This document shows positions 35,055 through 41,962 of a stretch of DNA of 64,000 bases, one piece after another (within the stretch, counting starts at the first letter, position 1; the number at the start of each line of letters is the position of its first letter). Source of the DNA: an uncultured Chloroflexia bacterium (GTDB lineage Bacteria > Chloroflexota > Limnocylindria > Limnocylindrales > CSP1-4); contig CAWFXA010000003.1 of NCBI GenBank assembly GCA_963819655.1, positions 640,001 through 704,000 of the forward strand. Direction: 5' to 3'. The position numbers and the translations under genes are program-made. Below the pieces are notes generated by a model that was not told the origin of the DNA, ran no database searches, and saw only the letters and a program-made list of their open reading frames with translations.

Positions 35055-37643
35055 TTAACTCCCGACAGGCTCCTTGGCGAGGTGTCGCTGCATCGCGGCC
35101 TTGCGCGACAGGTTGACGCGGCCCTGCCGGTCGATCTCGGTCACGACGACCATCACCTCGTCGCCGACGGACACGACGTCCTCGACGGTGGGCACGTGGT
35201 AGTCGGCGAGCTCGCCGATGCGGACCAGGCCCTCCTTGCCGGGCAGGATCTCGACGAACGCGCCGAAGCCCATGATCCGGGTCACCTTGCCGAGATACAG
35301 GGCGCCGATCTCGACCTCGCGGGTCAGGCTCTCGATCCACTGGATCGCCTTGCGCGAGTTCTCGCCGGACACGGCCGCGATCTCCACGGTGCCGTCGTCC
35401 TCGACGTTGATCTCGGTCTGGGTCTCTTCCTGGATCTTGCGGATCATCGATCCGCCCTTGCCGATGATCTCGCGGATCTTCTCGGGGTTGATCTTGATCG
35501 TGATGATGCGCGGCGCGAAGTCGCTCATCTCCACGCGGGCCTCTGGCAGCACCGCGGTCATCTTGTCGAGGATCTCGAGGCGGGCCACGAGAGCCTGCTT
35601 GAGACCGTCACGGATGATCGCCTCGCTGATGCCCTGGACCTTGATGTCCATCTGCAGGGCGGTCACGCCGTCCCGCGTGCCGGTCACCTTGAAGTCCATG
35701 TCCCCGATCGAATCCTCCTTGCCGAGGATGTCGGTCAGGACCACGAACCGGCCGTCGGGCTCGCTGATCAGGCCCATCGCCGCACCGGCGACCGGTGCCT
35801 TGATCGGCACGCCGGCGTCCATCAGCGCGAGGGTCGATCCGCACGTCGAGGCCATCGACGTCGAGCCATTCGACGTCACGCACTCGCTCACGAGGCGGAT
35901 GACGTACGGGAACTCATCGTGGTCCGGGAGGACAGGCACGAGTGCCCGCTCGGCGAGATGGCCATGGCCGATGTCGCGCCGGCTGGGCCCGCGCATCGGC
36001 TTGTTCTCGCCGGTGCTGTACGGCGGGAAGTTGTAGTGGTGGAGGTAGCGCTTCTCGGTCTCCGGGCTGATCGTGTCGATCCGCTGGACGTCCGAGGACG
36101 AACCGAGCGTCGCCACGGTCAGCGCCTGCGTATCACCGCGCGTGAACAGGCCGGAGCCATGGGCGCGTGGGACGAGTCCGACCTCCACGCTGATGGGCCG
36201 GATCTCGGTCAGACCGCGACCGTCGATGCGGATGCCCTCGTCGAGGACGAGCTGGCGGACGGTCTTCTTCTGGATCAGGTTGAACAGGCCCTTGCTGACA
36301 CGTGCGTCGCGGCGGGCGAACTCGAGCAGGCTGGCAGTGTCGCCACCCGTGCGCTGGGCGCGGACCGCGTCGGCGATCGCTGTGCGCAGGGTCGAGATCC
36401 GACCCGGCAGGTCCCTCGCGAACCAGATCAGGAGGTTCGCGGTCGCCTCGGCGTCCGGGAGCGCCCGATGGCTCTGGGTCAGGTCGACGCCGAAGAAGCG
36501 CGCCAGGTCCGGGAGCTTGTACGAGTCGCCGCCAGGGTAGCCCTCGCGGGCGATGATCAGGGTGTCGAGGTATGTGCCGGGCTGGAAGCGGAACCCGTCG
36601 CCCTTGGCCTCTTCCATGAAGGCGAGGTCGAAGCCGACGTTGTGCCCGACGACCTTGGCGTCGCCCACGAAGGCGAGCAGCTGATCGGCCGCCTCGCGGG
36701 GACTCGGCGCGCCCTTGACGTCCTTGTCGGTGATGCCGTGCATCTGGTTGCCGACGATGGGCCGGCCGGGGTTCACGAAGGTCGACCAGCGGTCAACGAT
36801 GTCCGTGCCCTTGACCTTGACCGCGGCGACCTCGAGGAGGTCGGCCATCTTCGGATCGGTGCCGGTCGTCTCCACGTCGATGACGACGAGCTCGCGCTTG
36901 TCGTCGGTCGCGGAGGCGAACTCGAGGACCGAGCTCGTCGGGGGCTCGAGGTACGGGACGCGCTTCGCCTTGCCGACCGCCTTCTGGATCTCCTCCTGGA
37001 GGTCCACGATCGGCTGCAGCGCGCGATGCCCGAACAGGATGGCCTCGGCCATGACGTCCTCGGGCAGCAGCTTGGCGCCGGCCTCGACCATCATGATCGC
37101 GTCGCGTGTGCCGGCGACGATCAGGTCGAGCTCGGAGTCGGCGAGTTGGCTGAAGGTCGGGTTGACGACGAACTCTCCGCCGATGCGCCCGACACGGACC
37201 GAGCCGATCGGCCCGTTGAACGGGATCTCACTGATCGTCAGGGCGGCTGATGCCGCGATCGTGCCGACCACGTCGGGGAGGTTCTCCTGGTCGGTCGAGA
37301 GGACCGTGATGACCAGCTGGACGTCGTCCTTGTAGCCCTCGGGGAAGAGGGGACGGATCGGTCGGTCCGTCTGGCGGGCCGCGAGGATCGCGTTCTCCGA
37401 TGGACGGGCCTCGCGCTTGATGAAGCCGCCCGGGATCTTGCCCGCGGCGTACATCCGCTCCTCGAAATCGACGGTGAGCGGGAAGAAGTCCAGCCCGGGG
37501 CGGGGCTCGGAACGGTTGGCAGTGCCGAGCACCATGGTGTCACCGTAGCGGACGGTGACGGAACCGCCGGCGAGCCGTGCAAGCTTGCCGGTTTCGATGG
37601 TCAGTGTGCGACCACCGAACTCTGTCTCGAAAGTCTGAGACAA
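35055..37643 (-). CDS. pnp: Polynucleotide phosphorylase with an in-frame DEDDh exonuclease insertion
   Basis: PH1 (FFPLTVD, GKIPGGF.KRE), PH2 ([37 protein letters not shown]), KH and S1 domains; downstream of rpsO. Confidence 0.97.
36414..36896 (-). other. DnaQ-like DEDDh 3'-5' exonuclease domain inside PNPase (about aa 250-410)
   Basis: Exo[10 protein letters not shown] (D256, E258), ExoII GHNVGFD (D339), ExoIII HRALPDA (H392, D397). Confidence 0.93.
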
Positions 37644-37766
37644 GGGAAACGATCCTCCTTGGTCGTGGAGGAGAAGTCGACCCGCGGGCGGGTCAGCCTG
37701 CTTCGCAGCCGGCGCCGTGTATGCGAGGACCCCGGGCGGTCTGCCCGAGGTCCGTGAGCGGCGACG

Positions 37767-38036
37767 CTAGCGGCGGAGTCCGAGCCGTCCGATGACGGTC
37801 CGGTAGCGCGCGCTGTCCTTCTTCATCAGGTATGCGAGAAGGCGGCGGCGCTGGCCGACGAGCTTGAGGAGGCCGCGACGCGAATGGTTGTCCTTCGGGA
37901 AGCGCCGGAGATGGTCCGTCAGGTCCTTGATCCGCTCGGTCAAGAGCGCGACCTGGACCTCTGGTGAACCGGTATCGCCATCGTTTGTGGCGTAGCCGGT
38001 GACGATCTCCTGCTTCAGTTCCCGCGCGAGCGGCAC
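37767..38036 (-). CDS. rpsO: 30S ribosomal protein S15
   Basis: [33 protein letters not shown]; 89 aa. Confidence 0.97.
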
Positions 38037-38159
38037 TCGGTCCTCCGACACGATCTGTGTGCTTGTACCTTCCTGTTTGACCGGCGGATGGTAGCAGAGA
38101 GGCCTCGAACGCGCCATCGAGCGCCGGTCGGCCCGTCCGACCCCGGCTATCCTTCGCCC

Positions 38160-38723
38160 ATGCCGCGGCTGACGAGGATCTACACGAAGACCGGCGACGA
38201 GGGGATGACCGGGCTCGGTGGCGGCAGGCGCGTGGCGAAGGACTCTCCGCGGGTCCGCGCGTACGGCACCGTCGACGAGTTGAACTCCGCGATCGGGGTC
38301 GCCCTCGCGCTCGGGCTCACCGACCGGCTCACGAGCGAGCTCGGATCTATCCAGAACGAGCTGTTCGACCTCGGGTCGGACCTGTGCTGGCCCGAGGACG
38401 ACGAACGCCGCGCGCGTATCCCGACCGTGCAGCCAAAGCACGTCCGGAGGCTCGAGGCGCTCATCGATGAGCTCAACGAGGTGGTCGGTCCGCTGACGAA
38501 CTTCCTGCTCCCGGGCGGCGCACCGGGCGCTGCGCAGCTCCACGTCGCCCGCACGATCTGCCGGCGCGCTGAACGCGAGGCGATCACGCTGTCACATGAG
38601 GAGCCGATCGGACAGCTGGTCCTCCCCTATCTCAATCGGTTGTCGGACGCGCTGTTCGTCATGGCCCGTTTCGAGAACCACGAACGCGGCGTCGACGAGC
38701 CGCTCTGGCAGCCCGGGCTGTAG
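38160..38723 (+). CDS. ATP:cob(I)alamin adenosyltransferase (PduO type)
   Basis: [34 protein letters not shown]. Confidence 0.93.
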
Positions 38724-40942: not shown

Positions 40943-41962
40943 TCAGCGAGCGACCGCCGCGGCGGACCGGCGGGCCTCGGCGAGCACGGCGTCGCGTGCG
41001 CGGTCCATGGGGAGCGGCACGGTCGCGCCGGCCGCCCGGGCATGCCCGCCGCCCCCGAAGATCCCGGTCAGGACGGTCGCGTCTACCCCACCCGGCTTGG
41101 TGCGCACGCTGATACGAGTCCCGTCCGCCGCCTCCTTGAACAGGATCGCCACCTCGGCATCCTCGGCCTGGGCGAGCAGGTCGATGATGCCCTCGGCGTG
41201 CGGCGGTTGGGTGCCGGTCGCCACGAGATCCGCGTCGAACAGCGTCGATGCGACGACGCGGCCCGCATCGAAGCTCTCGAGCCGGTCGAGGACGCGGCCG
41301 AACAGCCGCAGCTGGACCGCCGGCTTTGAGCGATACAGGCGACGCGAGATGTCCGACAGCGGCGCACCCGCGTCCACCAGCGCGGCGGAGACCGCGAGCG
41401 TTCGCGGCGTGGAATTCGGATGGGCGAAGGTCGCGGTGTCCATGACGATCCCTGCCATCAGGGCGGTCGCCAATGCCCCGCCGGCGGCATCGAGCGGGAC
41501 GCCCAGTCTGACGGCGAGCAACGTGACCATCTCGCAGGTCGCTGCGGCCGCAGGGTCGATCCAGTCGGCTTCTCCCGCAGCCTCGTTCGAGGCGTGGTGG
41601 TCGATGACGACACGTGCAAGGCGGTCGAACAGGTCCCGATGTCTTTCGCCGACCGCCCCCACGCGCTCCAGCGTCGCGCAATCGGAGATCACGAGCAGGT
41701 CGTAGTCAGCGTCCGGGTCGGGGTCGGTCCGAAACCGGTCGACGCCCTCGAGGAAGTCGTACAGCGGCGGGACGGGGTCCGTGCACACCGGGTCGGCCGT
41801 GCCGCCGAACGCCTCGACGAGATGGACGATCGCAAGCGTAGCGCCCAGGGTGTCGGCATCGGGGTTCTCGTGGCTGACGGCGAGCACCCGTCGCGCGTTG
41901 CGGATCCGCTCGACCACGACATCGGGCACGGCGTCGAGGTAGACCGCCAGGTCGACGGTCAT
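40943..41962 (-). CDS. nrnA: DHH/DHHA1 phosphoesterase (nanoRNase NrnA-like)
   Basis: HENPDAD, IDHH, GGGGHARAAG; between rbfA and truB. Confidence 0.9.
   Translation of the reverse strand: MTVDLAVYLDAVPDVVVERIRNARRVLAVSHENPDADTLGATLAIVHLVEAFGGTADPVCTDPVPPLYDFLEGVDRFRTDPDPDADYDLLVISDCATLERVGAVGERHRDLFDRLARVVIDHHASNEAAGEADWIDPAAAATCEMVTLLAVRLGVPLDAAGGALATALMAGIVMDTATFAHPNSTPRTLAVSAALVDAGAPLSDISRRLYRSKPAVQLRLFGRVLDRLESFDAGRVVASTLFDADLVATGTQPPHAEGIIDLLAQAEDAEVAILFKEAADGTRISVRTKPGGVDATVLTGIFGGGGHARAAGATVPLPMDRARDAVLAEARRSAAAVAR

Follow-up and report, generated by a model that had tools for sequence, protein, structure and literature searches.

A DinG-type DEDDh exonuclease domain inserted into the PNPase of three families of a Chloroflexota class

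PNPase is among the most studied enzymes of RNA decay, and its helical domain is the least understood part of it. What does it mean when a second exonuclease domain is found at just this place? The question is raised by the pnp gene in a 64-kb stretch of DNA, here referred to as the window (GCA_963819655.1, CAWFXA010000003.1:640,001-704,000, or C3:640001-704000; all positions are those of the window). The window belongs to G000, a 3.49-Mb, 91%-complete, metagenome-type assembly of three contigs, which we counted with family f1 of a class whose assignment rests on the source names of close relatives (Ca. Limnocylindrales). The first-pass annotation had placed at 35055-37643 an 862-amino-acid (aa) PNPase carrying a DEDDh exonuclease domain between its two RNase PH domains, and the open reading frame listing and the translation returned exactly this gene. 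Our analysis led us to consider it probable that the protein is a genuine, vertically inherited PNPase in which a once-inserted DnaQ/DinG-type DEDDh domain makes a dual phosphorolytic and hydrolytic 3′-5′ exonuclease that has taken over the exonuclease role of DinG.

Architecture and recurrence of the fusion

The 862-aa protein was scanned with Pfam and NCBIfam profiles. Pfam recovered two stretches each of RNase_PH and RNase_PH_C, followed by KH_1 and S1, and RNase_T (PF00929) matched over its full length at residues 253-405 (profile positions 1-164 of 164, E value of 1.1e-28, 101.3 bits against a cut-off of 24). The order predicted for such a scan, RNase_PH, RNase_T/DEDDh, RNase_PH, KH, S1, was thereby recovered, the DEDDh hidden Markov model (HMM) included. 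The PNPase equivalog models TIGR03591 (947.9 bits against 525, the match falling into two stretches on either side of the insert) and NF008805 (943.6 against 471) were both passed, and the PNPase helical-domain model PF03726 was matched over its last third only (residues 449-476, profile positions 53-80 of 81). The best named NCBIfam matches of the insert were the DEDD exonuclease PRK07883, the DinG N-terminal exonuclease, the PolC exonuclease and epsilon, and neither the Orn nor the RNase T equivalog model was among the best 25 of the 66 NCBIfam matches. The DinG models remained below their cut-offs (NF005981, 126.7 bits against 789; TIGR01407, 112 against 548) and matched in the exonuclease part only; Pfam found no superfamily 2 (SF2) XPD/DinG helicase module (DEAD_2 / Helicase_C_2) in the 862-aa protein.

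Every motif quoted in the first-pass annotation was present in the translation, namely IDVETTG (D256/E258), HGIT, GHNVGFD (D339), DTL and HRALPDA (H392/D397) in the insert, and RIDGR, SNGSTS and one 13-residue motif in the PNPase part, which also keeps KH and S1. The span given there for the insert, 36414-36896, corresponds to residues 250-410. When compared with the solved staphylococcal PNPase 5yjj, residues 3-249 and 453-851 of the query aligned to chain residues 18-265 and 312-709, so that a segment of about 46 residues in the canonical enzyme corresponds to about 203 here, an extra length of about 157 residues.

The full-length AlphaFold model had a mean predicted local distance difference test score (pLDDT) of 83 and a predicted template modelling score of 0.74, and the DEDDh domain reached a pLDDT of 87-96. 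In this model, the last DEDDh helix runs unbroken into a long helix of the helical domain (394-430), which is followed by helices 436-447 and 451-469; the remnant of the helical domain therefore comprises about 70 residues (406-476, three helices) instead of the 55 or so proposed previously. A fold search of the PDB with the whole model returned canonical PNPases only (solved examples are 7ogk, 4aim, 1e3h and 5yjj). Since this search was uninformative on the insert, the insert was folded alone, which yielded an RNase H-like DnaQ fold with a pLDDT of 89.4. The best Foldseek match of this model, also with the longest alignment, was Staphylococcus aureus DinG (8zef; E value of 3.8e-12), and it was followed by the PolC exonuclease, epsilon, a DnaQ domain, RNase T, ExoX, ExoI and TREX2; from DinG onwards, the E values extend from 4e-12 to 5e-7. 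RNase T appeared only from rank 13 down, and Orn was not among the matches listed.

In Escherichia coli PNPase, the helical domain is described as occupying the side of the torus away from S1/KH and as contributing to a second pore, through which nucleoside diphosphates and phosphate are thought to reach or leave the active site (Nurmohamed et al. 2009, PMC2723993). The first-pass annotation had placed the helical domain, at the site of the insert, on the same side, and that description agrees with it. As a continuous helix joins the DEDDh and helical domains in the model, the DEDDh domain is expected to be held rigidly on the far face of the ring, opposite KH/S1 and beside the side pore giving access to the PH2 active site.

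With a window taken from a metagenome-type assembly of three contigs, one may suspect a chimeric contig or two genes read as one, for which we found no supporting evidence. The gene is one stop-free frame, and its base composition is continuous across the insert. Moreover, a protein search with the insert region yielded more than 120 clusters of about 860 aa with an identical Pfam set and 82-96% identity over that region; they derive from ENA, JGI and NCBI assemblies, some of them from contigs longer than 1 Mb. The same junctions recurred in all f1 and f2 genomes and in at least 93 of the 103 f4 genomes of the class sample (Table 2), and the trees of the insert and of the PNPase are congruent (see below). 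We therefore give an artefact practically no credence, and chimeric assembly, the weak point foreseen in the first-pass annotation, is excluded, as far as comparative data can decide, by the recurrence of the junctions across independent assemblies.

The class sample was searched with a 341-aa query spanning both junctions and covered families f1 to f5. Full-length, stop-free matches were found in genus g1 and in family f2. In f3 (three genomes) and f5 (one genome), PNPase was canonical, with 736-739 aa (open frames of 737-749 aa) that matched residues 5-236 and 453-851 only. In a sample of the phylum comprising 401 genomes, strong matches were obtained in f1 (23/23), f2 (4/4), f4 (16/16) and G000, and the remaining 357 genomes gave two matches, confined to the DEDDh domain (G465 and G568), at a threshold of 1e-30 that would miss a PNPase with an unrelated insert. 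The architecture is thus common to f1, f2 and f4, a widespread set of uncultured bacteria within one Chloroflexota class. All named clusters of the fusion carry the label Ca. Limnocylindrales or Chloroflexota, with the exception of one Methylomirabilota, and the databases call these proteins either 'polyribonucleotide nucleotidyltransferase' or 'DNA polymerase III epsilon subunit family exonuclease'. The class sample includes unpublished genomes (G131, G273, G189, G156, G319 and G122 of f4; G139, G126, G102, G145 and G263 of f3), of which G102 and G145 also enter the helicase tally and G122, G319 and G156 the PF00929 tally presented below; the patterns are unchanged without unpublished genomes.

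A representative library (1.84 billion) contained 69 proteins below 1e-30 among the best 150 of 32,708 matches, and those long enough to judge were this fusion, its fragments or other DEDDh-repeat proteins. Long hits in several stretches, taken as candidates for independent PNPase fusions (P0164, P0177, P0183, P0176, P0189, P0232, P0191, P0228 and P0227) proved to be DEDDh repeats combined with GIY-YIG/UVR, DinG, PolC or BRCT and no PNPases. Short candidates for stand-alone relatives of the insert (P0138, P0134, P0143, P0160 and P0149) turned out to be truncated or frameshifted pieces of the fusion gene. Fragments with 41-45% identity, considered as a further divergent lineage, were all nearest to f1, several without the motifs, and are probably error-rich partial genes.

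Several stray observations accompany this distribution. The protein labelled 'Methylomirabilota bacterium' (P0111), an 860-aa fusion with 83% identity over the insert region, probably stems from a mis-binned contig of the Chloroflexota clade. The single strong match in f3 (G283:C380:50-1072) comes from a genome with 6% contamination. It is an f1-type PNPase-DEDDh fragment that shares 84% identity with the window, its contig measures about 1.07 kb, and it is probably a binning contaminant. The two DEDDh-only matches of the phylum sample (G465:C5:257958-258575 and G568:C3:710710-711318, both of f11; 39% identity) lie in frames of 1607 and 934 aa, each with two TGA codons, that could be recoded, broken or mis-joined. 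PNPase has also been extended in a different way in another Chloroflexota lineage, f14: the protein of G332 (L052:937-3579, minus strand) is 880 aa long because a repeat tail of about 160 aa of the RGG/RDRGG type follows S1; this tail is arginine-glycine-rich and probably a disordered RNA-binding segment.

Conservation and origin of the inserted domain

Insert-bearing orthologues were aligned (12 from f1, 2 from f2 and 13 from f4), and in all 27 of them the five DEDDh catalytic residues (D256, E258, D339, H392 and D397) are invariant, together with T259, T260, H302, G303, H334, F338, D360, T361 and R393. The phosphorolytic site is equally intact: S591, N592, G593, S594, S596, D638, D644, D650 and K652 of PH2, which we take from E. 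coli PNPase work to be phosphate- and metal-binding, are invariant in 31 of 31 aligned PNPases. The ratio of nonsynonymous to synonymous substitution rates (dN/dS) of the DEDDh domain was 0.09-0.31 in 10 of 10 pairs; it was 0.02-0.17 for PH1, PH2 and KH-S1, and the linker and the helical remnant reached higher values (Table 1). As far as sequences can tell, invariant residues and low dN/dS bear the mark of a working catalytic domain rather than of a decaying passenger.

Inactive DEDD-fold domains are known in other proteins, and the DEDDh fold might have been kept here for 3′-end binding, gating or protein docking, for example in regulating the side pore, with little or no turnover. The faster evolution of the insert, with an identity between families of 49-61% against 66-88% for the PH, KH and S1 domains, would fit such a non-catalytic module. 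However, inactivated domains normally lose just those residues that are invariant here in 27 of 27 sequences over about 50% divergence, that is, the catalytic five plus T259, T260, H334 and R393, and the low dN/dS of the insert speaks against this explanation as well. We hence find it quite improbable.

The origin of the insert was approached with a tree of 76 DEDDh domains; single-gene trees were built by a quick method. The 27 inserts formed one clade with a Shimodaira-Hasegawa-like approximate likelihood ratio test (SH-aLRT) support of 97, in which f4 splits from f1 plus f2. The PNPase tree, from which the insert columns had been removed and for which five other Chloroflexota served as the root, placed (f3,f5) as sister to (f4,(f2,f1)), both nodes with support of 100. 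The two trees agree, and the simplest history is a single insertion that was then passed on vertically; the mapping onto the phylogeny that the first-pass annotation had proposed thus ends in one clade with one origin. The data point to a single insertion event, in the common ancestor of f1, f2 and f4, at the N-terminal edge of the helical domain.

The insert clade falls within a group of SH-aLRT 90, internally unresolved, that contains six Pfam-confirmed DnaQ-DinG fusions and the clade of the class's own DinG exonucleases, as well as P0250 (PF00929 only) and the long-branch P0227 (DEDDh repeats); PolC and BRCT-linked exonucleases lie outside. By tree and by fold, the insert is therefore closest to the exonuclease domain of DnaQ-DinG, with 39-48% identity to the DinG exonuclease of the sister families. 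In an approximately unbiased (AU) test, a clade uniting the inserts with the class's own DinG exonucleases was not rejected (p 0.70), and the constrained tree even exceeded the quick free tree by 12.15 log-likelihood units. Neither the DinG connection nor the restriction to one clade had been part of the first-pass annotation.

Complementary distribution with DnaQ-DinG and predicted function

In f3 and f5, a search with the insert leads first to a frame of about 900 aa (41-46% identity), which encodes a fusion of a DnaQ exonuclease with a DinG helicase. When this f3/f5 DnaQ-DinG was used as a query against five insert-bearing genomes (G000, a second one from f1, one from f2 and two from f4), only the DEDDh domain within PNPase was matched, and the DinG helicase had no match in any of the five. 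A tally of the helicase module in 301 class genomes at least 85% complete gave the same division (Table 2): it is present in all f3 and f5 genomes, and a full-length DinG helicase had no match in the insert-bearing families f1, f2 and f4. Of 251 genomes at least 90% complete, 190 had one single PF00929 match by a count made by hand, and G756 and G096 had none. In the 91%-complete G000, PF00929 matched nothing but the PNPase insert, and the search revealed no stand-alone DnaQ/epsilon gene. The class therefore appears typically to keep one DEDDh module, either on DinG or in PNPase.

Table 2. Families of the class: matches to the junction-spanning 341-aa query (class sample), DinG helicase module (301 genomes at least 85% complete) and genomes with exactly one PF00929 match (251 genomes at least 90% complete)
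Family	Junction query	Type of match	DinG helicase module	Type of match	One PF00929 match
f1	91/91	strong	3/164	partial, 33-37% identity, frames of 717-2041 aa; read as other helicases, unchecked	123/168
f2	12/12	strong	0/18	none	3/9
f4	99/103	93 with best E <= 3e-88 (range of listed contiguous 1-341 matches); 6 weaker (E 1e-42 to 1e-69); 4 none	1/79	107-aa DinG-like fragment at contig edge (G075)	47/52
f3	90/92	89 weak and split; 1 strong (G283)	38/38	strong, a few split across contigs	16/21
f5	2/2	weak (E ~1e-24)	1/1	strong	1/1

In the PNPase family, RNA comes in at the KH/S1 face and is phosphorolysed in PH2, and the ring of the fusion would degrade RNA from that face like every PNPase. The DEDDh site would add, on the opposite face, a second 3′-5′ site that is hydrolytic, metal dependent and phosphate independent and that may trim single-stranded 3′ ends. 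Because the insert clade has no full-length DnaQ-DinG match and the sister families keep DnaQ-DinG, the fusion most likely took over, and would thus have inherited, the exonuclease job of that protein. Of the inference of a dual exonuclease made in the first-pass annotation, the architecture and the integrity of both sites have held at the level of sequence, fold and evolution, and the catalytic activity itself stays a prediction. The idea of action on single-stranded DNA (ssDNA), raised there as well, gains plausibility from the DinG-type affinity of the insert and from its distribution complementary to that of DnaQ-DinG. In Bacillus subtilis DinG, the DEDD domain is reported to degrade ssDNA 3′-5′ and the RNA strand of hybrids and to remove R-loops (PMC12525004); for PNPase, an ssDNA 3′-5′ activity and roles in DNA repair have been reported (PMC2709576, PMC3241651, PMC5379764), and human PNPase has been linked to R-loop homeostasis (PMC12430004). 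These reports together lead us to favour a dual enzyme with an inherited DinG exonuclease role.

Some observations weigh against this interpretation. The substrate preference of a DEDDh domain is not readable from its sequence, which leaves RNA, ssDNA and R-loops as candidates. A second PF00929 match occurs in 44 of 168 f1 and 6 of 9 f2 genomes (followed up in G025 and G804). The insert was gained and DinG was lost on the same branch, so that the two represent a single co-occurrence and not a statistical association. With respect to ancestry, the free tree leaves the insert unresolved as sister to the class's own DinG, and on an HMM of the insert, non-DinG DEDDh domains (BRCT-linked P0218 and PolC P0242) scored about 155-158 bits against 96-123 for the DinG domains of the class. 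Descent of the insert from the lineage's own DinG is hence allowed by the AU test, not established by it.

The main rival is a role in RNA decay only, in which the DEDDh domain would hydrolyse short oligonucleotides left by PNPase via the side pore, or back up phosphorolysis, and in which the loss of DinG would be coincidental. PNPase is primarily an RNA enzyme, and hydrolytic 3′-5′ exoribonucleases look scarce, given that RNase II/R (PF00773) had no match in five class genomes (G000, G025, G043, G044 and G052, each at least 91% complete) and that G000 had no match to the RNase D/NrnC-type family PF01612. In addition, the helical domain is described as lining a pore to the active site (PMC2723993), and in mitochondria PNPase is reported to be followed by the DEDDh oligoribonuclease REXO2 (PMC7261184). 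Nevertheless, one of the two DHH proteins of G000 is an NrnA-like protein encoded in the pnp operon itself, and its orthologue was found in five of five genomes, with and without the insert, each time in the neighbourhood of pnp. The finishing of nanoRNA products, suggested in the first-pass annotation, thus has no comparative support. Furthermore, f3 and f5 cope without the insert and also without RNB, and the nearest relatives of the insert by sequence, tree and fold are DNA-acting domains of the DinG, PolC and epsilon types, with Orn absent from the matches listed. An RNA-only finishing or back-up role therefore strikes us as rather unlikely.

The favoured dual exonuclease admits a bolder form, which we offer as a tentative possibility: the lineage may have moved its only DEDDh exonuclease from a DinG helicase to the PNPase ring, and PNPase would have become the carrier of the ssDNA 3′-end and R-loop exonuclease of the cell. 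If so, the fusion would be a covalent bacterial counterpart of an 'exosome ring plus hydrolase' in which RNA decay is physically coupled to genome maintenance, and the nuclease would be fed by a PH ring with KH/S1 instead of an SF2 helicase.

Locus and comparison with known systems

The pnp gene is found in its usual setting, within the gene string infB-rbfA-DHH-truB-ribF-rpsO-pnp, and the linkage to rpsO noted in the first-pass annotation was borne out, with the S15 gene directly upstream and truB, ribF, rbfA and infB beyond it (Table 1). The co-directional string is broken between ribF and rpsO by a gene on the plus strand (38088-38723) for a PduO-type cob(I)yrinic acid a,c-diamide adenosyltransferase.

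Table 1. Features of the pnp gene, its product and its neighbourhood in the window
Feature	Position	Strand	Evidence	dN/dS (10 pairs)
pnp coding sequence	35055..37643	-	862 aa + stop, TTG start, single open frame; TIGR03591 948 bits (cut-off 525)	
PH1 module (RNase_PH + RNase_PH_C), residues 1-208	37020..37643	-	Pfam	0.04-0.17
Linker, residues 209-252 (...GKAKR, then ~25 variable residues, short helix 238-247)	36888..37019	-	alignment, model	0.16-0.94
Inserted DEDDh exonuclease domain, residues 253-405	36429..36887	-	PF00929; pLDDT 87-96; best fold match S. aureus DinG 8zef	0.09-0.31
Exo I codons D256-x-E258 (DVETT)	36870..36878	-	D256, E258, T259, T260 invariant 27/27	
Exo II codon D339 (HNVGFD)	36627..36629	-	H334, F338, D339 invariant 27/27	
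Exo III codons H392...D397 (HRALPD)	36453..36470	-	H392, R393, D397 invariant 27/27	
Helical-domain remnant, residues 406-476	36216..36428	-	models; PF03726 matches 449-476 only	0.14-0.63
PH2 module with phosphorolytic site, residues 477-700	35544..36215	-	Pfam RNase_PH 480-613	
KH domain, residues 714-771	35331..35504	-	Pfam PF00013	
S1 domain, residues 777-848	35100..35315	-	Pfam PF00575	
Shine-Dalgarno AAGGAGG	37654..37660	-	~10 nt 5′ of the pnp TTG start; read from sequence	
rpsO (ribosomal protein S15), immediately 5′ of pnp	about 37767..38060 (start approximate)	-	TIGR00952 124 bits	
NrnA-like DHH/DHHA1 protein, between rbfA and truB	40943..41962	-	PF01368; NF053633 82.8 bits (below cut-off 350)	

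Both modules are textbook families, and it is their arrangement and the swap with DinG that are new. A PNPase carrying a DEDD insert is not described in the literature that we searched on PNPase with DEDD fusions, on DnaQ and on Chloroflexi exonuclease domains, and the first-pass annotation likewise knew of no such architecture. The main text of a 2026 genomics paper on Limnocylindria makes no mention of it; the supplementary gene tables of that paper (PMC13212565) were outside the look-up.

The fusion shares with the canonical PNPases of E. coli, Caulobacter crescentus, Streptomyces antibioticus and staphylococci the order PH1-helical-PH2-KH-S1, the invariant phosphate and metal motifs and the linkage to rpsO, and it differs from them in that no matched solved structure has the DEDDh domain of about 157 residues at the start of the helical domain. 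The DnaQ-DinG fusions, such as DinG of S. aureus (8zef/9ii8) and of B. subtilis, have the DEDDh domain that is closest by fold and groups with the insert in the tree. In these proteins, however, the DEDDh domain is N-terminal and joined to an SF2/XPD-type helicase, whereas here it is internal and has the PNPase ring as its partner. The alternative placement of DEDDh, on DinG or in PNPase, in sister lineages is a clear case of a catalytic module that changes its delivery partner. As the carriers include f2, with genomes of only about 1.0-1.4 Mb, the fusion was retained even under genome streamlining.

Pairing of phosphorolysis with a DEDD hydrolase has precedents. The Caulobacter degradosome is reported to hold PNPase and RNase D on RNase E (PMC4245959), and mitochondrial PNPase likewise works with a DEDD hydrolase in RNA decay, being followed by REXO2 (PMC7261184). 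In both of these, however, the partners are separate polypeptides and the hydrolases belong to other DEDD subfamilies, and here a single chain holds the two. The fusion offers a natural experiment on the possible uses of the face opposite KH/S1 and of the side pore, and on the origin of the reported links of PNPase to DNA repair and R-loops (PMC2709576, PMC3241651, PMC5379764, PMC12430004).

In overall design, the fusion also resembles the eukaryotic exosome, which combines a PH-like ring with a DEDD-superfamily hydrolase, an analogy rather than a homology of arrangement. In the exosome, the ring is catalytically inert, and the hydrolytic activities reside in separate subunits, Rrp6, which is of the DEDDy type, and Rrp44. 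In contrast, the ring of the fusion is predicted to be active and its DEDDh domain is covalently inserted. Rrp6 is described as the catalytic subunit of the exosome (PMC2018643). The natural experiment extends to this comparison, since it bears on whether a PH ring can supply a DEDD nuclease in cis, or work together with it, in the way that the eukaryotic exosome shows in trans.

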